This document shows positions 3,303 through 59,537 of a DNA stretch of 64,000 nucleotides, piece by piece. Every line of letters begins with the position of its first letter. Position 1 is the first letter of the stretch. The notes beneath the pieces are model-generated. The model searched no databases and was not told where the DNA came from. It was given only the letters and a program-made list of their open reading frames with translations. The stretch spans positions 1,472,001 to 1,536,000 of the forward strand of contig CAUVXB020000001.1 of NCBI GenBank assembly GCA_963555825.3. The letters are read 5' to 3'. Origin of the DNA: Alphaproteobacteria bacterium. Lineage in GTDB: Bacteria > Pseudomonadota > Alphaproteobacteria > JAAXGF01. The position numbers and the translations under genes were made by a program.

Positions 3303-4727
3303 ATGCCCGACCAACCAACATCGACATCTTCCCTATCGACAGAAGTTATCGAGGCGTTCGGCGCCAGTCTTCGCGGCGAGCTCGTGCTGCCCGACAGCGA
3401 CGGCTACGACGCGGCGCGGCTCAACTGGAACGGCATGTTCGACAAGCGCCCGGCGCTGATTGCGAGTTGCAGCGGCACCGCCGACGTCATCGCCGCGGTC
3501 GACTTCGCGCGCGACAACGGGCTGCTCACCGCGATCCGCTCGGGCGGCCACAACTCGGGTGGCTCGGGCTCGTGCGACGGCGGCATCATGATCGATCTGT
3601 CGGGCATGAACGCCGTCCACGTCGACCCCAAGACGCGGCGCGCCCGCGTCCAGGGCGGCGCGACCTGGGGCGATTTCGACCGCGAGGCGCAGGTTCACGG
3701 ACTGGCGACGCCGGGCGGCGTCGTCTCGGCGACCGGCGTCGCCGGGCTCTCGCTCGCCGGCGGCCTGGGCTGGCTGCGCGGCAAACACGGCCTCAGCCTC
3801 GACAACATCATCTCGGTCGACATCGTCACCGCCGACGGCGTCCTGCGCACCGCCAGCGAGGACGAGAACGCGGAGCTGTTCTGGGGCATCCGCGGCGGCG
3901 GCGGCAACTTCGGCGTCATCACCTCGTTCGAGTTCCAGGTCCACCCACTCGGCCCGACCGTGATGTTCGCCGGGCCGGTCTACCGCGCCGCCGACGCGGC
4001 GCAGGTGATGAAGGCCTGGCGCGAGTACTTGGCGACCGCGCCCGACGAGATCGGTGGCATGCTGGTCGAGTTTTCCACTGTCGCCGCAGACCCCGAATTC
4101 CCTGAGGAGATATGGGGCGAGAAGGTCATGACGCTGGCTGGCGTCTGGGCCGGCCCGGCCGACGAGGGAGAGGCCGCGGTGCAGCCGCTGCGCGAGCTGG
4201 CCGAGCCGGTGATGGATTACTCGGGCCAGATGCCCTACTGCGACGTCCAGCAACTGTTCGACGCGCTGTTCCCCAAGGGCGTCCACCACGCCTATTTCAA
4301 GTCGGTCTATCTGGGCGATCTCGAGGACGCGGTGATCGACGAGATCGCGCCGCGCATGGCGGATCGGCCGTCCGACCTGACACTGTGCTCGGTCTGGTAC
4401 TTGGGTGCGGCGACCAGCCGCGTCGCGGCCGACGCGACCGCCTTCGGCGCGCGTGACATGGGCTGGATGCTGAGCATCGACGGCATCTGGGAGGACCCGG
4501 CCGACGACGAGACGAACCTCGCCTGGGCGCGCCAGTTCTGGGCCGACATGAAGCACCGGTCAAACGGCCGCGCCTATCTCAACTTCGCCGGCCTCGGCGA
4601 GGAGGGCGAGGAACTGGTGCGCACCAGTTACGGCGCCGCCAACTACGAACGCCTCGCCGCGCTCAAGTTCCAATACGACCCAACCAACCTGTTCCGGCTC
4701 AACCAGAACATCAAGCCGGGCGGGTGA
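3303..4727 (+). CDS. FAD-binding oxidoreductase (berberine-bridge/6-hydroxy-D-nicotine oxidase-like)
   Basis: RSGGH covalent-FAD motif, GGGGNFGV, C-terminal YDPTNLFRLNQNI; AGGAGG RBS. Confidence 0.92.
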   Translation: MPDQPTSTSSLSTEVIEAFGASLRGELVLPDSDGYDAARLNWNGMFDKRPALIASCSGTADVIAAVDFARDNGLLTAIRSGGHNSGGSGSCDGGIMIDLSGMNAVHVDPKTRRARVQGGATWGDFDREAQVHGLATPGGVVSATGVAGLSLAGGLGWLRGKHGLSLDNIISVDIVTADGVLRTASEDENAELFWGIRGGGGNFGVITSFEFQVHPLGPTVMFAGPVYRAADAAQVMKAWREYLATAPDEIGGMLVEFSTVAADPEFPEEIWGEKVMTLAGVWAGPADEGEAAVQPLRELAEPVMDYSGQMPYCDVQQLFDALFPKGVHHAYFKSVYLGDLEDAVIDEIAPRMADRPSDLTLCSVWYLGAATSRVAADATAFGARDMGWMLSIDGIWEDPADDETNLAWARQFWADMKHRSNGRAYLNFAGLGEEGEELVRTSYGAANYERLAALKFQYDPTNLFRLNQNIKPGG

Positions 4728-4781
4728 CGGTATAGTGAAGGGCTGCCTGCCCGCCGCTTCAGGAGAGGATGGAGATCGCTC

Positions 4782-5414
4782 ATGGCCTACGTCGACTGGA
4801 TGATCAAGGGACTGAAGATCGGCGGCTGTAGCTGCGACTACGGCTGCCCCTGCGAGTTCATGGCGCCGCCGACGCGGCGCCCCTGCGAAGGGTACGAGGG
4901 CATGGAGATCGAGGAGGGCTACTTCGGCGACGTCCGGCTCGACGGGCTGCGCACCGCCGGCACCTTCCGCTGGCCCGGCGCGATCCACGAGGGCGGCGGC
5001 GCCTATCAGCCGGTGATCGACAAACGCGCGACCGAGCAGCAGGTCGCCGCGCTGTTCAAGATCCTCGGCGGCGAGGAGCAGGAGCCGACCACCGCCGCCA
5101 ACATCTACGGCTCGACCATCGCGACCGAACACGAGCCGATCTTCGCCGACATCGACTTCGCCTGCGACATCGCGGCGCGCACCGGCCACGTCCGGGTCGC
5201 CGGCGTCATCGACGCCGTCGTCGAGCCGATCCGCAACCCGGTCACCGGCCTGCCGCACCGCGCCGCGATCCGCCTGCCCGAGGGCTTCGAGTTCCGCGAG
5301 GCCGAGATGGCGAGCAGCGACTTCACCGGAACCGGCGAGTTCGCTCTCGATCACAAGAAGCGCTACGGCGCGCTCACCTATGTCGCCTACGGCCCGTACG
5401 GGATTATCGAGTAG
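4782..5414 (+). CDS. DUF1326 family protein
   Basis: N-terminal CSCDYGCPC...CEG motif; WPGAIHEGGG. Confidence 0.85.
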   Translation: MAYVDWMIKGLKIGGCSCDYGCPCEFMAPPTRRPCEGYEGMEIEEGYFGDVRLDGLRTAGTFRWPGAIHEGGGAYQPVIDKRATEQQVAALFKILGGEEQEPTTAANIYGSTIATEHEPIFADIDFACDIAARTGHVRVAGVIDAVVEPIRNPVTGLPHRAAIRLPEGFEFREAEMASSDFTGTGEFALDHKKRYGALTYVAYGPYGIIE

Positions 5415-7335
5415 GCGTGCTGCTCACGCTCGCCGGCGTTTACATGCTGGTCACCGGCTGACACTCAACCCCTCCGATTGACAGCCTTCCGGGGCGGTCC
5501 ATAGAGTGGGCGGCAACGAACCGTCGTATGGGGGAGGCCGTGCCGCAGCCGGGCGTCGAACGCAGGCTCGCCGCGATACTGTCGGCCGACGTGGTCGGCT
5601 ACTCGCGGCTGATGGGCGCCGACGAGGCGGGCACGCTCGGCCGGCTCAAGGCGCACCGCGCCGAGTTCATGGACCCGACCATCGCGGCGCATGGCGGGCG
5701 CATCGTCAAGCTGATGGGCGACGGCGCATTGGTCGAGTTCGCAAGCGTCGTTTCTGCCGTGGATTGCGCCGCCGCGATCCAGCGCGGCATGGCCGAGCGC
5801 AACGCCGGCGAGCCCGAAGCGCGGCGCATCGCGTTCCGCGTCGGCGTCAACCTGGGCGACGTCATCGTCGACGGCGACGATATCTACGGCGACGGCGTCA
5901 ACGTCGCCGCGCGCCTGCAGGAGATTGCCGAGCCGGGCGGCGTGTGCATCTCGGGCGACGCGCAGCGCCAGATCAAGGGCAAGACCGACGCGCGCTTCGA
6001 GGACCTGGGTGAGCGCGAGGTCAAGAACATCGCCGAGCCGGTCCACGTCTACCGCCTGACGACCGCAACCCCAGCGCCAGCGTCGGCCGGGCCCCTCGCC
6101 CTGCCCGACAAGCCGTCGGTCGCCGTGCTGCCCTTCGTCAACATGTCGGGCGACGCCGAACAGGAGTACTTCTCGGACGGCATCACGGAGGACATCATCA
6201 CCGAGCTCACGCGCTTCGGCGAGCTGTTCGTCATCGCGCGCAATTCGTCGTTCTCCTACAAGGGCAAATCGGTCAAGGTGCAGGACATCGGCCGCGACTT
6301 GGGCGTCGCCTACGTCGTCGAGGGCAGCGTCCGCAAGGCGGGCAACCGGGTGCGCGTGACCGCTCAGCTGATCGAGGCGGAGACCGGCAACCACGTCTGG
6401 GCCGAGCGCTACGACCGCGACCTCGAGGACATCTTCGAGGTCCAGGACGAGATCACCCGCGCGATCGTCTCGATCCTGCCGGTGCGGCTGCACGGCGCGC
6501 TGACCAAAAGCGCACTCCGCAAGCCGACCCAGAACCTCACGGCATACGACTATTACCTGCGTGGCCGAGCGGCATATATGCAATCGGTCGGCGAAGACCG
6601 TTCGGCGGTCGACCTGCTTGCAAAGGCGGTTGAGATAGACCCGCGCCTCGCCCACGCATATGCCTTCATGGCGTTGGATTATTCCTATAGCGTCTACGGT
6701 TTACGGCCCCTGGACGAAGACCCGGTTCCGCTGGCGCGCGCGAATATCGAACGCGCGCTCGCCGTCGTGGACGAAGATTCGTTCATCCACGCCATCGCGT
6801 CCGATGTTTATATGATTTTCGGCGATCACGATCTCGCCAGGGGACATGCCGAAAGGGCGATCGCGATCAACCCGAACGATATATGGGTGAGGCATGCCTA
6901 TGGCTTCATGTTGGCCTATAGCGGCGAGCCCGAGAAAGCCGAGACATGGTTGGTCGAGACCCTGCGCCTCGACCCCCACCCGCCAGGTTTCCTGGTCGAA
7001 GCTCTCGCCGAATGCCACTACCTGCTGCACAACTACGAAGCGGTCATCGAGATCTACACGCGGTGGCAGAATCCGCCGCTGCACATGTACACGCAACTCG
7101 CCGCCGCCTACGCGCAACTCGGCCGCATGGACGAGGCCCGCGGCGCGTTCGAGACGTACCAGCGCCTGCGCCCGCCGGACGCCGATTTCGCGTATTACCT
7201 GGCGGCGCATGTGCGCCTGAGAACGGCAGAGCAATAATCCCCCACTGAAGCGGCCGGTCGATCCGGCTGCGGCGGACCAAAATGGGACCGCGTATAGCCT
7301 TCTGTCAGGGTTGCTCTGACTGGAAGGCGGGGGGG

Positions 7336-8835
7336 ATGTATCGGGTGGAGTTGTACGCACGGGTTCGGCGGGCGTGTCATGTCGAGGGGATGAGCACCCG
7401 CGAGGCCTCGCGGGTGTTTGGTGTAGACCGCAAGACGGTCCGTAAGATGCTGTCGTTCTCGGTGCCGCCAGGGTATCGCCGAAGCGCGCCGCCGAGGCGG
7501 CCAAAGCTGGGTCCGTTCACGGGAATCATCGATCGGATCTTGGAAGACGATCGGACCAGCCACCGCAAGCAACGGCACACTGCGAAGCGCATCTTCGACC
7601 GCCTCCGGGACGAGTACGGTTTCACGGGCGGCTACACCATCGTGAAGGACTACGTTCGTGAGCAGGGGCTTCGGTCGCGTGAGGTGTTCGTGCCACTCTC
7701 CCATTCCCCCGGTCACGCCCAGGCGGACTTCGGCGAAGCGATGGCGGTGATCGGCGGCGCGTTACGGAAGATCCACTTCCTTGCCTTCGACCTTCCCCAC
7801 AGTGATGGTTGCTTTGTTGCGGCCTATCCGGCGGAGACGACCGAAGCATTCTGCGATGGCCACAACGCGGCGTTTGCCTTCTTCGGCGGCGTCCCCCGAT
7901 CCATCCTGTACGACAACACCAAGCTGGCGGTTGCCCGGATCCTGGGCGATGGGAAGCGGCAGCGAACGCGCGTCTTCACGGAGCTTCAGTCCCACTATCT
8001 GTTCGAGGACAGGTTCGGCCGGCCGGGCAAGGGCAACGACAAGGGCAAGGTCGAGGGACTGGTCGGCTTCATCCGGCGGAACTTCCTGGTCCCCGTCCCG
8101 CGTGCCGAGAGCTTCGCGGCCCTCAACGATGCTCTCGCCGAACAGTGCCGCCGGCGCCAGGCGGCGCGGCTGCGGGGCCACAAGGAGACCATCGGCGAGC
8201 GTCTCGAGCGGGATCGTCAAGTTCTCTTGCCATTGCCGCCTGCTCCCTATGATGCCTGCGATAAGCGCCCTGGACGGGCGAGTTCGCTGTCGCTGGTGCG
8301 TTACCGCAGCAACGACTATTCCGTGCCCGTGGCCTACGGCCACCGTGAGGTGCTCATCCGGGGCTACGTCGATGAGGTGGTGATCAGCTGCGGGGCCGAG
8401 GTGATCGCCCGGCACCGCCGGTCCTACGACAGCGAGGACCTGATCTTCGACCCGCTGCATTACCTGCCCTTGATCGAGCAGAAGATCGGCGCCCTCGACC
8501 AGGCCGCGCCATTGGCGGGCTGGGACCTGCCCGAGGCCTTCATCACTCTGCGGCGGCTCCTCGAAGCTCGTATGGGCAAGGCAGGCAAGCGCGAGTACGT
8601 CCAGGTGCTCCGTCTACTGGAGACCTTCCGGCTCGAGGAGGTCGAGGGTGCGGTCGGCGACGCCCTGCGGCTCGGCGCAATCGGCTTTGATGCGGTGAAG
8701 CACCTGGTACTGTGCCGCATCGAGCGGCGGCCGCCCAGGCTCAACCTCGACGTCTATCCGTATCTGCCGCGCGCCCGGGTCGCGATGACGTCCGCCAAGT
8801 CGTACATGAGCCTGCTGTCGGGGCTCGGCGCATGA
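7336..8835 (+). CDS. istA: IS21 transposase
   Basis: HAQADFGE, ILYDN, KGKVE DDE motifs. Confidence 0.95.
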   Translation: MYRVELYARVRRACHVEGMSTREASRVFGVDRKTVRKMLSFSVPPGYRRSAPPRRPKLGPFTGIIDRILEDDRTSHRKQRHTAKRIFDRLRDEYGFTGGYTIVKDYVREQGLRSREVFVPLSHSPGHAQADFGEAMAVIGGALRKIHFLAFDLPHSDGCFVAAYPAETTEAFCDGHNAAFAFFGGVPRSILYDNTKLAVARILGDGKRQRTRVFTELQSHYLFEDRFGRPGKGNDKGKVEGLVGFIRRNFLVPVPRAESFAALNDALAEQCRRRQAARLRGHKETIGERLERDRQVLLPLPPAPYDACDKRPGRASSLSLVRYRSNDYSVPVAYGHREVLIRGYVDEVVISCGAEVIARHRRSYDSEDLIFDPLHYLPLIEQKIGALDQAAPLAGWDLPEAFITLRRLLEARMGKAGKREYVQVLRLLETFRLEEVEGAVGDALRLGAIGFDAVKHLVLCRIERRPPRLNLDVYPYLPRARVAMTSAKSYMSLLSGLGA

Positions 8836-9596
8836 CCGACACACCGCAAGTGCTGCTCGCCCACCACCTCAAGACGCTGAAGCTGCCGACCTTCCTGCGC
8901 GAGTACGACAAGATCGCCCGGCAGTGCGCCTCGGAAGGCGTCGATCACGTCCGCTACCTGTTGAGACTCGCCGAGCTCGAGCTGATCGACCGCGAGCGCC
9001 GCATGGTCGAGCGGCGCATCAAGGCGGCGCGCTTCCCCGTGGTCAAGAGCCTCGACAGCTTCGACTTCAAGGTCATCCCCTCGCTCAACAAGGCGCTGGT
9101 CCTGGAGCTGGCCCGCTGCGAGTACATCGAGCGCCGCGAGAACCTCATCGCGCTCGGCAACAGTGGGACCGGCAAGACCCACATCGCCCTCGGTCTCGGC
9201 CTGGCGGCCTGCCAGAAGGGCCTCTCGGTCGGCTTCATCACCGCCGCCGCGCTGGTCCACGAACTCATCGAGGCCCGCGATGACAAGCAGCTGCTGAGGT
9301 TCCAGAAGAAGCTCGCCACCTACAAGCTTCTGATCGTCGACGAACTCGGCTTCGTGCCGCTGTCGAAGACCGGCGCCGAGCTGTTGTTCGAGGTGTTCAG
9401 CCAACGCTACGAGCGGGGCTCGACCCTGGTCACCACCAATCTGCCCTTCGACGAATGGACCGAGGTGTTCGGCTCCGAGCGCCTCACCGGCGCGCTCCTC
9501 GATCGCCTCACCCACCACGTCAACATCCTCGAGATGAACGGTGACAGCTACAGGCTCAACCAGAGCCGCAGGCGTCAAACCCCGACTGCTAACTGA
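8832..9596 (+). CDS. istB: IS21 helper AAA+ ATPase
   Basis: Walker A GNSGTGKT, Walker B LIVDELG, LDRLTHH; ATGA overlap with istA. Confidence 0.95.
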   Translation: MTDTPQVLLAHHLKTLKLPTFLREYDKIARQCASEGVDHVRYLLRLAELELIDRERRMVERRIKAARFPVVKSLDSFDFKVIPSLNKALVLELARCEYIERRENLIALGNSGTGKTHIALGLGLAACQKGLSVGFITAAALVHELIEARDDKQLLRFQKKLATYKLLIVDELGFVPLSKTGAELLFEVFSQRYERGSTLVTTNLPFDEWTEVFGSERLTGALLDRLTHHVNILEMNGDSYRLNQSRRRQTPTAN

Positions 9597-9922
9597 ACCG
9601 ACCACCCAGCCCACGCTTGACCCCGTGGGCCCACAGGTCCCTCCCGCGCGCGCCGCCGCGTCAGCCTGTTGAGGGCACGCCGCGTCGCGCGCGGGGCCCT
9701 CCCGTGGACTACGGGGACAAGCCCGCAGCCGCCAAGCGGTCCCTTCTTACACCGCCGAGGTGGTCCCTTTTTGCTCCGCCATTGACATGCGCCTGTGCAA
9801 GCGCCCCGAAGACGCCGATCACTGGGCCGAGGGCTACCGCAAGGCGGGGCTCGTCGACTAGGCTTGCCAGGCCTGGAAAGTTCGGCCACAGTTCCGCCGG
9901 ATCGACTACGGAGGATCGCGCG

Positions 9923-27188: not shown

Positions 27189-27313
27189 TTTCGTCCATTC
27201 CTGGCTATGGGCGCCTCAATTTTTGCTCCGACCAGACGACGGCTTTTCGATCTGAAAGCCGACGTCCGGCTCAGCGATCGTGAAGGACCGAAACGGGTCG
27301 ATTGCGGGCGAAA
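27189..27313. repeat. array of 2-3 degenerate palindromic units cut by IS21
   Basis: GACGACGGCTTTTCGATCTGAAAGCCGACGTCC and, 47 bp later, GAAGGACCGAAACGGGTCGATTGCGG. Confidence 0.6.
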
Positions 27314-30300
27314 TGTCAATGGCGGAGCAAAAAGGGACCACCGTGGCGGTGTAAGAAGGGACCACTTGGCGGCTGCGGGCTTGTCCCCTAGTCCATGGGA
27401 GGGCCCCGCGTGCGACGCGGCGTGCCCTCAACAGGCCGACGCGGCGGCGCGCGCGGGAGGGACCTGTGGGCCCACGGGGTCAAGCGTGGGTTGGGTGGTC
27501 GGTTCAGTTCGCCGTCGGGGTTTGACGCCTGCGGCTCTGGTTGAGCCTGTAGCTCTCGCCATTCATCTCGAGGATGTTGACGTGGTGGGTGAGGCGGTCG
27601 AGGAGAGCGCCGGTAAGCCGCTCGGAGCCGAACACCTCGGTCCATTCGTCGAACGGCAGATTGGTGGTGACCAGGGTCGAGCCCCGCTCGTAGCGCTGGC
27701 TGAACACCTCGAACAGGAGCTCGGCACCGGTCTTGGACAGCGGCACGAAGCCGAGTTCGTCGACGATCAGAAGCTTGTAGGTGGCGAGCTTCTTCTGGAA
27801 CCTCAGCAGCTGCTTGTCATCGCGGGCCTCGATGAGCTCGTGGACCAGTGCGGCGGCGGTGATGAAGCCGACCGAGAGGCCCTTCTGGCAGGCCGCCAAG
27901 CCGAGACCGAGGGCGATGTGGGTCTTGCCGGTGCCGCTGTTGCCGAGCGCGATGAGGTTCTCGCGGCGCTCGATGTACTCGCAGCGGGCCAGCTCCAGGA
28001 CCAACGTCTTGTTGAGCGAGGGGATGACCTTGAAGTCGAAGCTATCGAGGCTCTTGATCACGGGGAAGCGCGCCGCCTTGATGCGCCGCTCGACCATGCG
28101 GCGCTCGCGGTCGATCAGCTCGAGCTCGGCGAGTCGCAACAGATAGCGGACGTGGTCGACGCCTTCCGAGGCACACTGCCGGGCGATCTTGTCGTACTCC
28201 CTCAGGAACGTCGGCAGCTTCAGCCTCTTGAGGTGGTGGACGAGCAGCACCTGCCGTGTGTCGGTCATGCGCCGAGCCCCGACAGCAGGCTCATGTACGA
28301 CTTGGCAGACGTCGTCGCGACCCGGGCGCGCGGCAGGTACGGATAGACGTCGAGGTTGAGTCTGGGCGGCCGCCGCTCGATGCGGCACAGTACCAAGTGC
28401 TTCACCGCATCGAAGCCGATTGCGCCGAGCCTGAGCGCGTCGCCGACCGCACCCTCGACCTCCTCGAGCCGGAAGGTCTCCAGCAGACGGAGCACCTGGA
28501 CGTACTCGCGCTTGCCCGCCTTGCCCATGCGGGCTTCGAGCAGGCGTCGCAGAGTGATGAAGGCCTCGGGCAGGTTCCAGCCCGCCAACGGCGCGGCCTG
28601 GTCGAGGGCGCCGATCTTCTGCTCGATCAAGGGTAGGTAATGCAGCGGGTCGAAGATCAGGTCCTCGCTGTCGTAGGACCGGCGGTGCCGGGCAATCACC
28701 TCCGCGCCGCAAGAGATAACGACCTCGTCGACGTAGCACCGGATCAGCACCTCGCGGTGGCCATAGGCCACGGGCACCGAGTAGTCGTTGCCCCGGCAGC
28801 GCACCAGCGACAGCGAGCTCACCCGTCCAGGGCGCTTGTCGCAGGCATCGTATGGTGCCGGGGGTAGAGGCAAGAAGGCTTCCCGGTCCCGTGCGAGGCG
28901 CTCGCCGATGGTCTCCTTGTGACCCCGCAGCCGCGCCGCCTGGCGCCGGCGGCACTGTCCCGCGAGAGCATCGTTGAGGGCCTCGAAGCTCTCGGCCCGC
29001 GGGACGGGGACCAGGAAGTTCCGCCGGATGAAGCCGACCAGTCCCTCGACCTTGCCTTTGTCGTTGCCCTTGCCCGGCCGGCCGAACCTGTCCTCGAACA
29101 GATAGTGGGATTGAAGTTCCGTGAAGACGCGCGTTCGCTGCCGCTTCCCATCGCCCAGGATGCGGGCGACTGCCAGCTTGGTGTTGTCGTACAGGATGGA
29201 GCGGGGGACGCCGCCGAAGAACGAGCTATGTCCGAAAGTTGGTGACGGAGCTATCAGGCGGCGTGTTTGGTTATCTTGATTCCGTCCTTGAACGGCACTC
29301 CTTCGACGAGTTCGGCGAGTTGATTTGATCCGTCCAGCTTCCGCCATTTCCGCCTGGCACTCAAGATCAGTTTGAAGGCCATGGCGAGCGCCGTCTTGCG
29401 GCTCAGGCACCCCTTGGTCTTCACGGTCCTCAGGCGCACCGTGGCGAAGGTGCTTTCGATGGGGTTGGTGGTGCGGATGTGCTTCCAGTGCTCGGCCGGG
29501 AAGTCGTAGAAGCTCAGCAGGCGTTCACGGTCCTTGACCAGGCGCTCTGCGGCCTTGTGGTATTTTGCGCCGTAGGCTGCGATGAAGAAGTCGAAGGCGG
29601 CTTCGGCGTCGGCCCTAGTCTCGGCCATCCAGATGTCGTGCAGATGGCCCTTGGCTTTGGCCTGCAGGGATTTGGGCATCTGGTTGAGCACGTTGGCGGT
29701 CTTGTGGACCCAGCAACGCTGCACCCTGGTCTCTCCGTAAACCTCGCGTAGCGCCTTCCAGAAGCCCAAGGCGCCGTCGCCGACGGCCAACTCGGGGCCG
29801 GTCTCCAAGCCCCGGCGCTTGAGATCAAGCAGCAGTTCCTTCCAGCTTTGCGCGCTCTCTCGATAACCGTCGACCATGCCGACGATGTCCTTGTTGCCCA
29901 TGGCGTCGGCGCCGATGATCACCAGAACACACTGTTTGTCATGGTCCATGCGAGGCGAGAAGTAGACCCCGTCGGCCCAAAAATAGACGTAGCGCCGAGC
30001 CGAAAGGTCGCGCTTTTGCCAGGCTTCGTATTCGTCCCACCAGACCGCTTTCAGCCGGCCAATGGTGCTGGCCGTCAGGCCCGGCGCGTCCGGTCCCAGC
30101 AGCGCCGCCAGGGCCTCCGAAAAGTCGCCGCTGGAGATGCCCTTCAGATAAAGCCAGGGCAGAAGCGCCTCGACCGACTTGGCGCGCCTGAGATAAGGCG
30201 GCAGGATCGATGACGTGAAACGGATGCGCCCGCCCGTGGCCTGTGGATCTCGGTCTCGCACTCTTGGCCGCTTCACCGTCACAGCTCCGATCCCGGTCTG

Positions 30301-47575: not shown

Positions 47576-49181
47576 TGTCAATGGCGGAGCAAAAAGGGAC
47601 CACCTCGGCGGTGTAAGAAGGGACCGCTTGGCGGCTGCGGGCTTGTCCCCGTAGTCCACGGGAGGGCCCCGCGCGCGACGCGGCGTGCCCTCAACAGGCT
47701 GACGCGGCGGCGCGCGCGGGAGGGACCTGTGGGCCCACGGGGTCAAGCGTGGGCTGGGTGGTCGGTTCAGTTAGCAGTCGGGGTTTGACGCCTGCGGCTC
47801 TGGTTGAGCCTGTAGCTGTCACCGTTCATCTCGAGGATGTTGACGTGGTGGGTGAGGCGATCGAGGAGCGCGCCGGTGAGGCGCTCGGAGCCGAACACCT
47901 CGGTCCATTCGTCGAAGGGCAGATTGGTGGTGACCAGGGTCGAGCCCCGCTCGTAGCGTTGGCTGAACACCTCGAACAACAGCTCGGCGCCGGTCTTCGA
48001 CAGCGGCACGAAGCCGAGTTCGTCGACGATCAGAAGCTTGTAGGTGGCGAGCTTCTTCTGGAACCTCAGCAGCTGCTTGTCATCGCGGGCCTCGATGAGT
48101 TCGTGGACCAGCGCGGCGGCGGTGATGAAGCCGACCGAGAGGCCCTTCTGGCAGGCCGCCAGGCCGAGACCGAGGGCGATGTGGGTCTTGCCGGTCCCAC
48201 TGTTGCCGAGCGCGATGAGGTTCTCGCGGCGCTCGATGTACTCGCAGCGGGCCAGCTCCAGGACCAGCGCCTTGTTGAGCGAGGGGATGACCTTGAAGTC
48301 GAAGCTGTCGAGGCTCTTGACCACGGGGAAGCGCGCCGCCTTGATGCGCCGCTCGACCATGCGGCGCTCGCGGTCGATCAGCTCGAGCTCGGCGAGTCTC
48401 AACAGGTAGCGGACGTGATCGACGCCTTCCGAGGCGCACTGCCGGGCGATCTTGTCGTACTCGCGCAGGAAGGTCGGCAGCTTCAGCGTCTTGAGGTGGT
48501 GGGCGAGCAGCACTTGCGGTGTGTCGGTCATGCGCCGAGCCCCGACAGCAGGCTCATGTACGACTTGGCGGACGTCATCGCGACCCGGGCGCGCGGCAGA
48601 TACGGATAGACGTCGAGGTTGAGCCTGGGCGGCCGCCGCTCGATGCGGCACAGTACCAGGTGCTTCACCGCATCAAAGCCGATTGCGCCGAGCCGCAGGG
48701 CGTCGCCGACCGCACCCTCGACCTCCTCGAGCCGGAAGGTCTCCAGTAGACGGAGCACCTGGACGTACTCGCGCTTGCCTGCCTTGCCCATACGAGCTTC
48801 GAGGAGCCGCCGCAGAGTGATGAAGGCCTCGGGCAGGTCCCAGCCCGCCAATGGCGCGGCCTGGTCGAGGGCGCCGATCTTCTGCTCGATCAAGGGCAGG
48901 TAATGCAGCGGGTCGAAGATCAGGTCCTCGCTGTCGTAGGACCGGCGGTGCCGGGCGATCACCTCGGCCCCGCAGCTGATCACCACCTCATCGACGTAGC
49001 CCCGGATGAGCACCTCACGGTGGCCGTAGGCCACGGGCACGGAATAGTCGTTGCTGCGGTAACGCACCAGCGACAGCGAACTCGCCCGTCCAGGGCGCTT
49101 ATCGCAGGCATCATAGGGAGCAGGCGGCAATGGCAAGAGAACTTGACGATCCCGCTCGAGACGCTCGCCGATGGTCTCCTT

Positions 49182-50707
49182 ATATGAGGCGTTTGCTGTC
49201 AAGGTGGATTTAATCTACGCGGCACATGATCGTCTCTTCCATTGGTTATGGCTTTGTATCCAGGGCGGGTCTTGCGATGAGTTCCGTGTTTCGTGCGAGT
49301 GATCGCATCACCTTATATCCGGCAGCTCCGATCCGGCTTGCCACAATGCTGTATACATGGACCATCACAGGACGGGGATGGGACTAATCTTGTGGACGGC
49401 ACCTTCGCCAAGGAGACATGCAGTCACACATCCAACCTGCCAACAAGCGTTCCCATCGGGGAATGAAGCCCGTTAGAACGCTGAGCTGATCCGCAGTCCT
49501 ATTTGACGACAGCACCCACCGGGATCAGCCCGGTTTCCAGATACCGCCAAAGCGCGATCGCCAGTTTGCGGGCCAGGGCGACGATCATGACGCGCCTGAT
49601 GCGCCCCTTCTGACCTTGGGTGCGGTCATGGAACCACTGGGTCAGAGCGCTATCGGGTTGATGGCGGACCCAAAGCCATGCGGCTTCGATCATGGCAACC
49701 CGTGCCAGCCGATTGCCCGCCTTGGAGATGCCTTGGCTGCGGCGCCCGTCGCCGCTGTCATAGGCACTGGGCGTGATCCCGATATAGCTTGCCACCTGTC
49801 GGCGATTGGCGAACTGGCGATAATAGACTTCCCGTGCGAGCGTCGTGGATAAGGCCGGGCCGAGGCCCTTTAAGCGCAGCAGCTGGTGACGCTTGCTTTC
49901 CGTGGCCACACACGGTGTCGGCGCTTGATCACGCTCACGCTCGACCTCGACGATCTGCGCTTGGACCTGGGCCAGTCTCGCGATCTCCCGCGCGATCTCG
50001 CGGCCGAGACGGTCCGGCAGGGGTCGGCCGTCTCCGGTGACCAGCGCCGCCGGTGTCAAGGTCTTGTAGCGCGCCTTGACATTGATGCCGCGAATGCCCT
50101 GACCGAATAGCAGACCCTTGATCCGGTTGATGTGGGCGGTTCGCTCGCGGACCAATCGGTCACGTTCCCGATGAGAGCGGCGAAGGTCCTCCTCCGCGAC
50201 GCTCGGAATCACCACCATGGAGCAGACATGACGCTCGCCGCGGCACCAGGCGATCAGCGTATGAAGAATATTCTCGACATCGATGCGGTCGGTCTTCACC
50301 CGCCGCGCCCGGCGGTTGACCCGCAAGCTGGCCGGCTCCATGACCAGACACTCGATGCCGCGCTGCTCGAGGAACCGCGCCAACCAGAAGCCGTCGTAGC
50401 CGGCCTCGTAGCACAGCGTTATCGTCGGCGTTCGACCCGTCACCTTGACCACCCGGTCCCGCGCCGCGTCCAGCTTGGCCATCAGTCCTTCAGCGTCGCC
50501 GCCCTTGATCGGATGCAAGCTCGGATTGCCCCGCCCCGGAGCCTGGATCGCCAAAAGCCAGCTGTTCTTGCTCAACTCCAGTGCCGCATAAATAGCGTGT
50601 TCATTGGAGGTCGATACCGGAAACTGTGCCATCGTGTCGCTCCTTCTGATCGAGGTTGAAATAATCGAAGGAGCTTGAGGCTGCGTCCTTCAGCCTCATA
50701 GCATCTT
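49182..50707 (-). mobile_element. IS110-family, IS1111-group element (recombinase 49499-50632)
   Basis: ALELSK, YEAG, VKTDRID RuvC-like residues and TPSAYDSG; sub-terminal IR TATGAGGC/GCCTCATA; CTT core at both junctions; long 3' non-coding end. Confidence 0.94.
49295..49440 (-). ncRNA. putative bridge/seekRNA with target- and donor-binding loops (transcript limits uncertain)
   Basis: guide-like segments 49410-49417, 49389-49395 (target) and 49346-49350, 49312-49318 (donor), each pair flanking a hairpin. Confidence 0.8.
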
Positions 50708-51713
50708 GTGGCCCCGCAGCCGCGCCGCCTGGCGCCGGCGGCACTGTTCGGCGAGAGCATCGTTGAGGGCCGCGAAGCTCTCGGCACGCGGGACGGGGAC
50801 CAGGAAGTTCCGCCGGATGAAGCCGACCAGTCCCTCGACCTTGCCCTTGTCGTTGCCCTTGCCCGGCCGGCCGAACCTGTCCTCGAACAGATAGTGGGAC
50901 TGAAGCTCCGTGAAGACGCGCGTTCGCTGCCGCTTCCCATCGCCCAGGATCCGGGCAACCGCCAGCTTGGTGTTGTCGTACAGGATGGATCGGGGGACGC
51001 CGCCGAAGAAGGCAAACGCCGCGTTGTGGCCATCGCAGAATGCTTCGGTCGTCTCCGCCGGATAGGCCGCAACAAAGCAACCATCACTGTGGGGAAGGTC
51101 GAAGGCAAGGAAGTGGATCTTCCGTAACGCGCCGCCGATCACCGCCATCGCTTCGCCGAAGTCCGCCTGGGCGTGACCGGGGGAATGGGAGAGTGGCACG
51201 AACACCTCACGCGACCGAAGCCCCTGCTCACGAACGTAGTCCTTCACGATGGTGTAGCCGCCCGTGAAACCGTACTCGTCCCGGAGGCGGTCGAAGATGC
51301 GCTTCGCAGTGTGCCGTTGCTTGCGGTGGCTGGTCCGATCGTCTTCCAAGATCCGATCGATGATTCCCGTGAACGGACCCAGCTTTGGCCGCCTCGGCGG
51401 CGCGCTTCGGCGATACCCTGGCGGCACCGAGAACGACAGCATCTTACGGACCGTCTTGCGGTCTACACCAAACACCCGCGAGGCCTCGCGGGTGCTCATC
51501 CCCTCGACATGACACGCCCGCCGAACCCGTGCGTACAACTCCACCCGATACATCCCCCCCGCCTTCCAGTCAGAGCAACCCTGACAGAAGGCTATACGCG
51601 GTCCCATTTTGGTCCGCCGCAGCCGGATCGACCGGCCGCTTCAGTGGGGGATTATTGCTCTGCCGTTCTCACCATCTGGGGAATCTCGGATTAGCCCGCC
51701 AGGGGCGGCGGTC

Positions 51714-56329: not shown

Positions 56330-58899
56330 TGAGAACGGCAGAGCAATAATCCCCCACTGAAGCGGCCGGTCGATCCGGCTGCGGCGGACCAAAATGGGAC
56401 CGCGTATAGCCTTCTGTCAGGGTTGCTCTGACTGGAAGGCGGGGGGGATGTATCGGGTGGAGTTGTACGCACGGGTTCGGCGGGCGTGTCATGTCGAGGG
56501 GATGAGCACCCGCGAGGCCTCGCGGGTGTTTGGTGTAGACCGCAAGACGGTCCGTAAGATGCTGTCGTTCTCGGTGCCGCCAGGGTATCGCCGAAGCGCG
56601 CCGCCGAGGCGGCCAAAGCTGGGTCCGTTCACGGGAATCATCGATCGGATCTTGGAAGACGATCGGACCAGCCACCGCAAGCAACGGCACACTGCGAAGC
56701 GCATCTTCGACCGCCTCCGGGACGAGTACGGTTTCACGGGCGGCTACACCATCGTGAAGGACTACGTTCGTGAGCAGGGGCTTCGGTCGCGTGAGGTGTT
56801 CGTGCCACTCTCCCATTCCCCCGGTCACGCCCAGGCGGACTTCGGCGAAGCGATGGCGGTGATCGGCGGCGCGTTACGGAAGATCCACTTCCTTGCCTTC
56901 GACCTTCCCCACAGTGATGGTTGCTTTGTTGCGGCCTATCCGGCGGAGACGACCGAAGCATTCTGCGATGGCCACAACGCGGCGTTTGCCTTCTTCGGCG
57001 GCGTCCCCCGATCCATCCTGTACGACAACACCAAGCTGGCGGTTGCCCGGATCCTGGGCGATGGGAAGCGGCAGCGAACGCGCGTCTTCACGGAGCTTCA
57101 GTCCCACTATCTGTTCGAGGACAGGTTCGGCCGGCCGGGCAAGGGCAACGACAAGGGCAAGGTCGAGGGACTGGTCGGCTTCATCCGGCGGAACTTCCTG
57201 GTCCCCGTCCCGCGTGCCGAGAGCTTCGCGGCCCTCAACGATGCTCTCGCCGAACAGTGCCGCCGGCGCCAGGCGGCGCGGCTGCGGGGCCACAAGGAGA
57301 CCATCGGCGAGCGTCTCGAGCGGGATCGTCAAGTTCTCTTGCCATTGCCGCCTGCTCCCTATGATGCCTGCGATAAGCGCCCTGGACGGGCGAGTTCGCT
57401 GTCGCTGGTGCGTTACCGCAGCAACGACTATTCCGTGCCCGTGGCCTACGGCCACCGTGAGGTGCTCATCCGGGGCTACGTCGATGAGGTGGTGATCAGC
57501 TGCGGGGCCGAGGTGATCGCCCGGCACCGCCGGTCCTACGACAGCGAGGACCTGATCTTCGACCCGCTGCATTACCTGCCCTTGATCGAGCAGAAGATCG
57601 GCGCCCTCGACCAGGCCGCGCCATTGGCGGGCTGGGACCTGCCCGAGGCCTTCATCACTCTGCGGCGGCTCCTCGAAGCTCGTATGGGCAAGGCAGGCAA
57701 GCGCGAGTACGTCCAGGTGCTCCGTCTACTGGAGACCTTCCGGCTCGAGGAGGTCGAGGGTGCGGTCGGCGACGCCCTGCGGCTCGGCGCAATCGGCTTT
57801 GATGCGGTGAAGCACCTGGTACTGTGCCGCATCGAGCGGCGGCCGCCCAGGCTCAACCTCGACGTCTATCCGTATCTGCCGCGCGCCCGGGTCGCGATGA
57901 CGTCCGCCAAGTCGTACATGAGCCTGCTGTCGGGGCTCGGCGCATGACCGACACACCGCAAGTGCTGCTCGCCCACCACCTCAAGACGCTGAAGCTGCCG
58001 ACCTTCCTGCGCGAGTACGACAAGATCGCCCGGCAGTGCGCCTCGGAAGGCGTCGATCACGTCCGCTACCTGTTGAGACTCGCCGAGCTCGAGCTGATCG
58101 ACCGCGAGCGCCGCATGGTCGAGCGGCGCATCAAGGCGGCGCGCTTCCCCGTGGTCAAGAGCCTCGACAGCTTCGACTTCAAGGTCATCCCCTCGCTCAA
58201 CAAGGCGCTGGTCCTGGAGCTGGCCCGCTGCGAGTACATCGAGCGCCGCGAGAACCTCATCGCGCTCGGCAACAGTGGGACCGGCAAGACCCACATCGCC
58301 CTCGGTCTCGGCCTGGCGGCCTGCCAGAAGGGCCTCTCGGTCGGCTTCATCACCGCCGCCGCGCTGGTCCACGAACTCATCGAGGCCCGCGATGACAAGC
58401 AGCTGCTGAGGTTCCAGAAGAAGCTCGCCACCTACAAGCTTCTGATCGTCGACGAACTCGGCTTCGTGCCGCTGTCGAAGACCGGCGCCGAGCTGTTGTT
58501 CGAGGTGTTCAGCCAACGCTACGAGCGGGGCTCGACCCTGGTCACCACCAATCTGCCCTTCGACGAATGGACCGAGGTGTTCGGCTCCGAGCGCCTCACC
58601 GGCGCGCTCCTCGATCGCCTCACCCACCACGTCAACATCCTCGAGATGAACGGTGACAGCTACAGGCTCAACCAGAGCCGCAGGCGTCAAACCCCGACTG
58701 CTAACTGAACCGACCACCCAGCCCACGCTTGACCCCGTGGGCCCACAGGTCCCTCCCGCGCGCGCCGCCGCGTCAGCCTGTTGAGGGCACGCCGCGTCGC
58801 GCGCGGGGCCCTCCCGTGGACTACGGGGACAAGCCCGCAGCCGCCAAGCGGTCCCTTCTTACACCGCCGAGGTGGTCCCTTTTTGCTCCGCCATTGACA
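56330..58899 (+). mobile_element. IS21 copy 4 (istA 56448-57947, istB 57944-58708), no TSD
   Basis: 2570 bp, same length and ORF translations as copy 1. Confidence 0.96.
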
Positions 58900-59537
58900 A
58901 TGACCGGCGCGGCGCCGGCCTGGACGCCGAGGCGCGCGCCGCCGTCGACTTCGAGCTCGACTGCCTGCTTGTTGCACAGATCGAGCATCATCCGGCAGGT
59001 GACGTTGCCTTCCTTCTTCGAGCCGCCCGTCAGGTGCCGTACACCGCCCAGCGCGAGCATCTGCGAGCCGTATTCGGCGGTCGTGACATGGCCGACCTGC
59101 TCGCCCTCGCAGCGCACCGCCGCCTGCTCGGGGCCGATGTAGCGGTCGGTGTCGATCTTCATCTTGATGCCGCAGTAGCTGAAGATGCCCTCGGTCACCA
59201 CGGTCACCATGTCGACGCCGTCGTGCTCGGCGGCGACGATGAAGGGCGCCGGCTTGTAGTCGGGGTACGTGGTGCCCGAGCCGATGCCGGTCAGGAAGGC
59301 CGGCCCCTTCGAGATCAGGTCGCCGTCCCAGTCGCCGGCGAGGAACGGCACCATGCGGCCGTCCTCGTCGAGCGTCTTGCGCGCCATGACCACCGGGTCG
59401 GTGCGCGTCAACACGCCGTCGGCGTTGGCGTAGCGGTCGCAGGCGCCGGTTCGCCCGGGCCGGATGCGGCACAGCACCGGGCAGGCGTCGCAGATGACGA
59501 CGTCGTCGCGCCCGCGTTTACCGGCGGCCTCGGTCAT
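58900..59537 (-). pseudogene. 6-hydroxynicotinate reductase homolog, 3'-truncated by IS21
   Basis: ICDACPVLC...GACDRY, GSGTTYPDYKPAPFIV, VTEGIFSYCG. Confidence 0.82.

Follow-up and report, generated by a model that had tools for sequence, protein, structure and literature searches.

The 64,000-nucleotide (nt) stretch of an Alphaproteobacteria bacterium genome analysed here (hereafter the window; contig CAUVXB020000001.1 of assembly GCA_963555825.3) carries a 1526-bp insertion sequence (IS) of the IS1111 type of the IS110 family and, judging from its sequence and that of its relatives, the right non-coding end of this element very probably encodes a seekRNA or bridge RNA of ~160 nt. The element sits inside istA, the transposase gene of an IS21-family element, and two short segments of the predicted RNA fit the istA bases on both sides of the insertion. 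By analogy with ISEc11, ISPa11, ISKpn4 and IS621, we infer that such an RNA would be synthesised, would be bound by the transposase and could be reprogrammed. RNA-guided recombination by IS110/IS1111 elements has been known since 2024, and the present element introduces no new principle; the targeting of another IS's transposase gene likewise has a precedent in ISEc21, which enters IS3-family genes. Our literature search found no report of an IS110/IS1111 element aimed at IS21 istA, and istA is thereby added to the few mobile-element genes at which IS110-family elements are aimed.

Target and donor segments of the predicted guide RNA

All features of the element lie on the minus strand and are described in that orientation. 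The junctions with istA were read directly as CCAC-AAG followed by ATGCT at 50711-50700, and CATAT-AAG followed by GAGAC at 49186-49174, so that the exact element is 49179..50704, with one AAG, the right-hand copy of the core, counted. The last istA bases before the element are therefore the left target plus core, CCAC-AAG (50705..50711), and istA resumes with the right target GAGAC (49174..49178). The element starts with ATGCTATGAGGC from 50704 and ends with GCCTCATATAAG finishing at 49179; the original prediction had placed its right end at 49182, which is 3 nt off.

The predicted long form of the RNA, defined by an RNAalifold consensus and a covariance model (R1) that scores 167 bits at this place, covers 163 nt at 49289..49451 and comprises a target-binding and a donor-binding stem-loop. 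The target-binding stem-loop (49373..49438) is closed by the stem GGATG.G.GACT / AGTC.CATCC, in which GGATG (49433-49429) pairs with CATCC (49380-49376) and GACT (49425-49422) with AGTC (49385-49382). Its 5' guide, ATGTCTCCTT (10 nt, 49410..49419), is complementary to the top strand of AAG-GAGAC(AT); it contains the 8-mer GTCTCCTT (49410-49417), the reverse complement of the core and right target, in which GTCTC faces GAGAC. It is followed by a small internal hairpin, GGCGAAGGTGCC (49398-49409), the dinucleotide GT (49397-49396) and the 3' guide CCACAAG (49389..49395), which copies the left target and core and is complementary to the bottom strand. Both guides include the AAG core and hence overlap in the target. 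The longest guide match is CCACAAGGAGACAT, 12 of whose 14 bases are fitted by the IS21 site. In the donor-binding stem-loop (49295..49368), two segments fit the ends of the element as joined in CATAT-AAG-ATGCT: AGCAT (49346-49350) complements the left end ATGCT, and ATATAAG (49312-49318) copies the right end and core, the two being separated by the hairpin GGCAAGCC..GGAGCTGCC (GGCAAGC..GCTGCC, 49342-49321). The guide, hairpin, stem and donor-loop strings on which the original prediction rested were all found on the minus strand at the positions it gave, and its pairing of the donor loop with the joined ends, AGCAT and ATATAAG being complementary to opposite strands, was borne out as well.

The guide-target matches are not due to chance, since the 320-nt right end, when shuffled 20,000 times with its dinucleotides preserved, gave the 8-mer in 39 shuffles, the 7-mer in 535 and both together in none.

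Insertion sites in the genome

The assembly (6.04 Mb, 2 contigs) holds 11 full copies of the element, which are 99.8-100% identical, as well as fragments. Seven full copies lie in istA and four elsewhere, and every one of the 11 is flanked by AAG on both sides, adjoins the same motif and has the same single orientation. The left flank reads YYAY-AAG in 14 of 14 cases (the 11 full copies and three left-end copies), and the right flank reads GAGAC in all 11 full copies. An identical istA context surrounds the full copies L001, L003, L004, L005, L008, L009 and L011 and the truncated copies L012 and L013. Outside IS21, L002 lies between GTCCACAAG and GAGACGAGC, L006 between CATCACAAG and GAGACATCG, L007 between AGCCATAAG and GAGACATAC, and L010 between GGTCACAAG and GAGACATTG, while the left-end fragment L016 follows GGCTACAAG. 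L002 occupies an exact copy of the 12-mer CCACAAGGAGAC and the other three full copies occupy one-mismatch sites. The fit is distributed differently over the sites: in IS21 and at L002 the left side is perfect and the right side fits over GAGAC only (5 bases), whereas L006, L007 and L010 fit over the 7 right-flank bases GAGACAT and carry one mismatch on the left. The tabulation of insertion sites that had been proposed as a check, with copies in unrelated targets counting against guiding, thus yielded no copy in an unrelated target, the 11 full copies and the three left-end fragments all adjoining the same motif.

The pre-insertion target proposed earlier, CCAC-AAG-GAGAC, is likewise real. Uninterrupted CCACAAGGAGAC occurs 69 times in the genome, every time in IS21 istA context, against 0.75 occurrences expected from base composition. 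No empty exact CCACAAGGAGAC was found outside IS21 in the whole genome, the sole exact site of that kind, L002, being occupied. Two of the empty exact targets lie in the window, in other IS21 copies on the plus strand (8178..8189 and 57290..57301), together with one one-mismatch site; genome-wide, 46 one-mismatch sites were left empty. With 11 insertions, 69 empty targets and 46 empty one-mismatch sites, a single genome thus provides a natural specificity experiment.

As for the genes that are hit outside IS21, L002 (G000:C2:3453085-3457602) breaks a large serine recombinase gene (Resolvase, Recombinase and Zn_ribbon_recom domains), and a paralogue with CCATAAGGAGAC is unoccupied. At the sites of L006, L007 and L010, no Pfam match was obtained.

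Conservation of the RNA scaffold and covariation of guides with flanks

Transposase homologues number thousands in public data, many of them 85-90% identical, and those with names are labelled only "IS110 family transposase" or "transposase". The clade has no description in the literature covered, although relatives may be among the elements covered by Siddiquee et al. in their supplementary figures or by Durrant et al. in Supplementary Table 5, which gives RNA predictions for individual ISfinder entries. Within the same taxonomic order, homologues were present in 2 of the 13 genomes searched. For comparison, 80 loci were taken from genome assemblies (49-89% identity, mostly alphaproteobacterial metagenome-assembled genomes) and 80 from metagenomes. 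When 14 right ends were aligned, no variation was seen in the scaffold or in the donor loop, which reads AGCAT..GGCAAGCCGGATCGGAGCTGCC GGATATAAG and hardly varies among relatives at large, while the target-loop segments vary. RNAalifold, applied to 13 sequences, returned two stem-loops, each with an internal loop flanking a small hairpin, and the covariance model built from this alignment gave 81 matches among 86 sources and 76 among 81, located on the coding strand 30-60 nt past the stop codon of the transposase gene (tnp).

Base pairing in the scaffold is maintained by compensation. Among 60 distinct rows of the genome set, standard pairs filled 87.9% of pair cells, compared with 35-44% when the partners were slid; 31 of 41 pairs had changed on both sides, and the observed values were reached by none of 500 shuffles. 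Helix 3 of the target loop is a case in point: it has 10 pairs, both partners have changed in seven of them, and 96.8% of its cells are paired. The same helices were recovered in a MAFFT/RNAalifold run that is independent of the covariance-model alignment.

The guides, for their part, change together with the flanking DNA. Exact matches were counted outward from the junction, with one value per distinct loop sequence, leaving out right ends without the exact donor 7-mer and left ends without a pattern match; in the genome set, 79 covariance-model matches of at least 140 nt gave 71 unique rows, with a right flank available for 26 distinct 5' loops and a left flank for 19 distinct 3' loops. In this set the 5' loop was complementary to its own right flank over at least 5 nt in 17 of 26 cases, as opposed to 32 of 744 cross-pairs, and identity of the 3' loop to its own left flank reached 7 nt or more in 12 of 19 cases, as opposed to 18 of 628. 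The metagenome loci behaved in the same way (own right flank 19/27 vs cross 73/828; own left flank 22/29 vs cross 20/1266). The cross-pair controls include related guides, so that the null is inflated. Individual loci illustrate the relationship: the window element combines GTCTCCTT with right flank AAG-GAGAC and CCACAAG with left flank CCACAAG; L045 combines GTCCGCTT with AAG-CGGAC and CCAAAAG with CCAAAAG; L047 has the same 5' segment GTCCGCTT and right flank AAG-CGGAC, and its 3' segment GGTAAAG meets left flank GGTAAAG; in L044, GGTAGAG meets GGTAGAG; and in L048, GGTAGCTT meets AAG-CTGCC with one U:G pair. The donor 5' segment tracks the left end in a similar manner (ATGCT/AGCAT, ATCCT/AGGAT, ATTCC/GGAAT), with exceptions such as L066, which has left end ATGCT with AGGAT. 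Of the AAG core, AG alone is common to every relative of the clade. Covariation across homologs, another check that had been suggested, was accordingly found in both of its forms, the guides varying with the flanks and the scaffold pairs compensating each other.

These comparisons bear on a rival explanation, according to which specificity is set by the protein or by DNA structure, without any RNA, and the matching strings are leftovers of the target or DNA binding sites. It can point out that ATATAAG also forms the right end of the element itself and stands at two places in the right non-coding end, that the RNA of this element is a predicted one, and that the fold is thermodynamically ordinary. 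We nevertheless consider it highly improbable. The matching segments lie in internal loops of stems with compensatory pairing, which points to a constrained fold of a single strand; of the two segments, one is the target's reverse complement and the other repeats it directly, which suits pairing with both strands; the guides change with the flanks though the protein stays 80-89% identical; and in the experiments on ISEc11, ISPa11, ISKpn4 and ISEc21 the RNA was required (PMC11187229).

Two further loci with more than one structure were seen. L058 (3639-3738) carries a second, partial target-binding stem-loop with other guides immediately upstream of the main RNA structure, and in L065 another complete match, ~800 nt away on the other strand (4614-4783, minus strand), probably belongs to a neighbouring element. 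A further candidate, insertion of L023 (G003, right flank GGGAGACCAT) within IS21 istA, was rejected, as tblastn revealed no flanking istA there.

Homing into IS21, composite spread and retargeting

Since the 12-nt address lies in istA of an IS21 element with more than 60 copies, IS21 supplies most of the landing sites, and each IS21 insertion truncates IstA. How the element came to occupy several IS21 copies is less easily established. We analysed 61 full-length IS21 copies of 2570 bp, of which 54 are empty and seven occupied; 38 of the 61, including four of the seven occupied copies, are identical to the consensus, and this near-identity leaves little power to separate homing from composite spread. 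The occupied IS21 near C2:2145762 carries two minor alleles that recur in six empty copies and in none of the other occupied ones, which speaks for at least two separate insertions into IS21.

The alternative is that a single insertion was followed by the spread of an IS21::IS composite with IstA and IstB acting in trans, without repeated RNA-guided homing into IS21. The junctions are identical in all seven occupied copies, four of these are identical to the IS21 consensus throughout 2570 bp, IstA/IstB could come from the more than 50 intact IS21 copies, and 69 targets remain empty, all of which suits this scenario. It has to reckon, on the other hand, with the occupied copy in the sub-lineage of two minor alleles whose six other members are empty, with the four full copies and one fragment that adjoin the same motif outside IS21, by which the element is seen to find the motif on its own, and with a relic that abuts the same istA junction and has a different spacer. 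As the sole account of the occupied IS21 copies, composite spread therefore seems to us rather unlikely, albeit to be taken seriously. The relic (G000:C1:1251402-1251634) is a 5'-truncated mosaic: its RNA region (element positions 1292-1442) and its final ~30 nt are 100% identical to the element and the spacer between them is strongly diverged, which points either to another variant of the element or to a spacer under less constraint.

The original prediction went further in calling the RNA programmed against IS21 istA. The guide does fit istA and IS21 does supply most sites, and to this extent the claim stands; that the guide evolved for IS21 does not follow, given the 10-nt 5' guide ATGTCTCCTT, whose right-hand fit is better at three non-IS21 sites, the 69 empty targets and the locus L130. 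In this metagenome locus, whose transposase is 86% identical, the guide pair is identical to that of the window element, and the element sits at a homologue of the L010 site, outside IS21. The left flank of L130, GGTAAAG, does not fit its 3' guide; L130 and L010 have at least 36 nt of right flank in common and differ in their left flanks, which suggests either that element copies were rearranged with each other or that the site is ancestral to both. A tblastn search with both IstA halves against 85 foreign genome loci found no flanking istA, apart from a weak rve match in L072.

The nearest relatives target a hairpin-like repeat, ATGTCCGCTT-N8-AAG followed across the junction by CGGACAT; the left arm of this repeat has the same sequence as the 5' guide. 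Compared with theirs, the 5' guide of the window element has two different bases and its 3' guide one or two. The move from a hairpin repeat to a target in coding sequence is accompanied by 3-4 base changes in the loops. One might go on to suppose that a guide lineage aimed at a hairpin like the REP (repetitive extragenic palindromic) sequences in the relatives has been retargeted here to istA, making the element a hyperparasite of IS21 that enjoys a renewable safe harbour and measurably curbs IS21. This is a speculative and distinctly doubtful proposal; if true, it would be a case of natural retargeting of one mobile element against another via RNA reprogramming.

One IS21-family element has undergone massive expansion in this genome, which contains many fragments besides the full copies, and DNA of this host is found in sponge metagenomes. 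In the window, IS21 sequences are positioned at about 7218-9787, 27311-29221 (diverged), 47576-51671 (occupied) and 56330-58901.

RNA-library contigs and points against an encoded guide RNA

Four metatranscriptome libraries from two studies were available as assembled contigs. The right non-coding end was covered by contigs in all four, the empty istA junction (49178 joined to 50705, skipping exactly 1526 nt) was present in contigs of three of the four runs, and loose contig ends in two runs match the flanks of L002 and L006. Since these data are contigs, they show the presence of the right end and nothing more. Runs X18 and X19 cover 49174-49576 alone and leave the body of tnp uncovered, a pattern not used as evidence for a small RNA. 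The circle junction occurred in none of the four contig sets, and being an absence from contigs this has no weight for or against circles. A contig of run X18 (49174-49534) stops at 49174, 5 nt past the right end, against an Illumina adapter, an end that may be an assembly artefact.

Several observations weigh against the reading of the right end as an RNA gene whose guides direct insertion. Contigs give neither strand nor ends nor amount, and DNA carry-over is possible. The right end and its 156-nt core are no more stable than shuffles (z +1.5), and stability in terms of minimum free energy hence lends no support. A scan of 48500-51500 against Rfam 15, which may or may not include a family of IS1111 seekRNAs, gave no match at E up to 1, and a scan for sigma-70-like promoters over 49100-50800 found none, a promoter formed at the circle junction being invisible to it. 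The alignment used to count pairs was fitted to the model, and the counts therefore lean toward the structure. As regards pairing with the target, three of the four non-IS21 sites carry a C-to-T change in the left target, which makes a C:A mismatch and not a wobble pair; fewer than five flank bases match the 5' loop in 9 of 26 genome cases and 8 of 27 metagenome cases; and in several close relatives only six of seven guide-flank bases fit. Finally, only two independent insertion events into IS21 are supported, and the copies in IS21 could partly have spread as IS21::IS composites mobilised in trans.

Comparison with known IS110-family systems

The original assignment to the IS1111 group, with a bispecific RNA downstream of the gene, agrees with what was found: an IS110-family protein, a short left end (72 nt) and a long right end (320 nt), 8-bp subterminal repeats, and the predicted RNA in the right end, past tnp. 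In the IS1111 group, subterminal inverted repeats measure 7-17 bp (Durrant et al. 2024, PMC11208160), the top-strand segment of the seekRNA comes before the bottom-strand one, counted from the 5' end, with an overlap between them in the target (Siddiquee et al. 2024, PMC11187229), and the published seekRNAs have short forms of 70-100 nt and long forms of 145-170 nt (PMC11187229). In the window element, GTCTCCTT (top-strand complement) lies 5' of CCACAAG (bottom-strand complement), in IS1111 order, and the ~65-nt stem-loop and the ~163-nt two-loop unit fit the published sizes. The transposase has 377 aa, as against the 330-350 aa quoted for IS1111 transposases. By tblastn, its identity to IS4321/IS5075 is 23.6% over residues 58-362, while the alignment to IS621 and ISCro4 spans residues 218-369 only (IS621 E 7e-8); a search of the PDB yielded no solved structure of an IS1111-type RNA system, the remote ISCro4/IS621 matches being the only ones.

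An IS110-group lineage with a downstream non-coding RNA, outside the IS1111 group proper, has to be weighed against this assignment. The excess length of the transposase, the low identity to IS4321/IS5075 and a subterminal repeat near the short end of the range would suit such a lineage, and IS110-type lineages with a 3' non-coding region are noted by Siddiquee et al. (PMC11187229). Against it, every published organisational feature of IS1111 elements is present here, and the alignment to IS4321 is longer than that to IS621/ISCro4. We think a placement outside the IS1111 group unlikely, and treat the element as IS1111-type.

The closest parallels are ISEc11, ISPa11, ISKpn4 and ISPst6, whose seekRNAs were shown experimentally (PMC11187229). 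Like the window element, they have a DEDD-type transposase, a long 3' non-coding region, subterminal repeats, overlapping segments in the same strand order and RNAs of similar size. ISPa11 targets REP sequences, and the close relatives of the window element likewise target a hairpin-like repeat (PMC11187229 for ISPa11). In contrast to the ISEc11 group, the window protein is longer, distant (IS4321/IS5075 being the only named IS1111-group comparison) and has apparently Glu as its first acidic residue, and the target, known here from sequence alone, is linear, 12-14 nt long and within a coding gene. ISEc21, of the IS110 family, resembles the window element in being RNA-guided to a linear target inside another IS's transposase gene; it differs in having the RNA upstream of tnp and the strand-segment order reversed, and its target is a conserved region of an IS3-family gene at the DDE motif's second D, whereas here istA is hit between the rve and C-terminal domains (PMC11187229). 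IS621 (PMC11208160, PMC11208158, PDB 8wt6) likewise has a two-loop RNA, with a target-binding and a donor-binding loop and opposite-strand segments around a short core, and the serine of the SG motif, and its RuvC-like acidic tetrad would have a counterpart here if E19 stands for the first Asp; but its RNA is in the left end and its core is CT (2 nt) rather than AAG, and no handshake guides were identified in the window element. IS4321/IS5075 are also IS1111-type and home into another mobile element at a fixed position and orientation, their target being the terminal repeats of Tn21 and not a transposase coding sequence. As a large clade with a 377-aa transposase, Glu at the first acidic position, a conserved scaffold and dozens of guide pairs, the relatives of the window element should help in learning the pairing rules of IS1111-type RNAs.

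Proposed mechanism

The steps proposed here are taken from studied relatives (PMC11187229, PMC11208158, PMC11208160, PMC12288879). The element would be excised as a circle, with CATATAAG expected to be joined to ATGCT at the junction, and in the circle a promoter at this junction would drive the transposase gene and the RNA. The hexamer TTGACA (-35-like, 49197-49202) is conserved 18 nt from the right end, and in the circle GATGCT would lie 17 nt further on; TTGACA-17 nt-GATGCT is a weak candidate for such a junction promoter. The RNA would then be processed and loaded onto the recombinase. In the target, (A)(T)GTCTCCTT would pair with the top strand of AAG-GAGAC, and CCACAAG with the bottom strand of the left target and core. 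The RNA-loaded recombinase would bring the circle junction together with a matching target, and strand exchange would take place at the AAG core. Recombination by RNA pairing at AAG would lead to site- and orientation-specific insertion, leaving AAG on both sides.

Anatomy of the element, the transposase and the interrupted IS21 copy

The left non-coding end (50633..50704, 72 nt) begins with ATGCTATGAGGC, which is kept in relatives; after its first 4 nt comes the left subterminal repeat, TATGAGGC (50693-50700). The right non-coding end (49179..49498, 320 nt) houses the RNA structure and ends in CTCATATAAG, also kept in relatives, with the right subterminal repeat GCCTCATA (49183-49190) again 4 nt in. 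The two repeats form a perfect 8-bp inverted repeat that is conserved in relatives. The lone terminator-like match was rejected, as it consists of the right subterminal repeat pairing with the flank.

The transposase (recombinase) gene occupies 49499..50632 and encodes 377 aa with the Pfam domains DEDD_Tnp_IS110 (PF01548, E 1.1e-9) and Transposase_20 (PF02371, E 1.6e-16), both over the curated cut-offs. Residues E19, E76, D115, D118 and S293-G294 are invariant or nearly so among 62 distinct relatives, and the SG motif sits in GITPSAYDSG (compare the family motif G--P----SG). E19 (codon 50576-50578) is Glu in all 62, within the motif A-[IL]-E-L-S-K. Going by the position of the usual family motif G-I-D-x-x-K, E19 may correspond to the first catalytic Asp, and on this footing the acidic tetrad would be E-E-D-D instead of D-E-D-D.

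The interrupted host gene is divided into an istA N-terminal part (50705..51607), with an rve match (E 1.1e-6, 29.3 bits) under the Pfam gathering cut-off of 32.6 bits, and an istA C-terminal part (48528..49178) with Mu-transpos_C_2 (E 5.9e-22), followed by istB of the same IS21 copy (47767..48651) with IstB_IS21 (E 9.1e-71); the last two matches exceed their curated cut-offs. The rve and Mu-transpos_C_2 halves followed by IstB_IS21 identify the host as an IS21-family element. The istA frame on the minus strand reads ...GGC CAC AAG, is broken by the element and continues with GAG ACC ATC, and the truncated istA open reading frame (50696-51607) stops at a TGA within the left end of the element. 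The element is co-oriented with istA (49499-51607, minus strand), and also with open frames at L002, L006 and L010, so that transcripts running on from the host gene could include tnp and the RNA while the element is integrated.

Two potential pairings occur in the left end. A possible hairpin, GAGGCTG-AAGGACG-CAGCCTC, comes directly after the subterminal repeat, and CTCCTTC...GAAGGAG could pair as well, which would mask the ribosome-binding site of tnp. Among close relatives the variation in both sequences looks compensatory, and translational control of tnp is a possible role for them. The window copy has 2 additional bases (49221-49222) in the spacer that separates the RNA structure from the right end; they are absent from the other ten full copies (1520 vs 1518 nt matched), and the contigs of the RNA libraries correspond to the shorter form.

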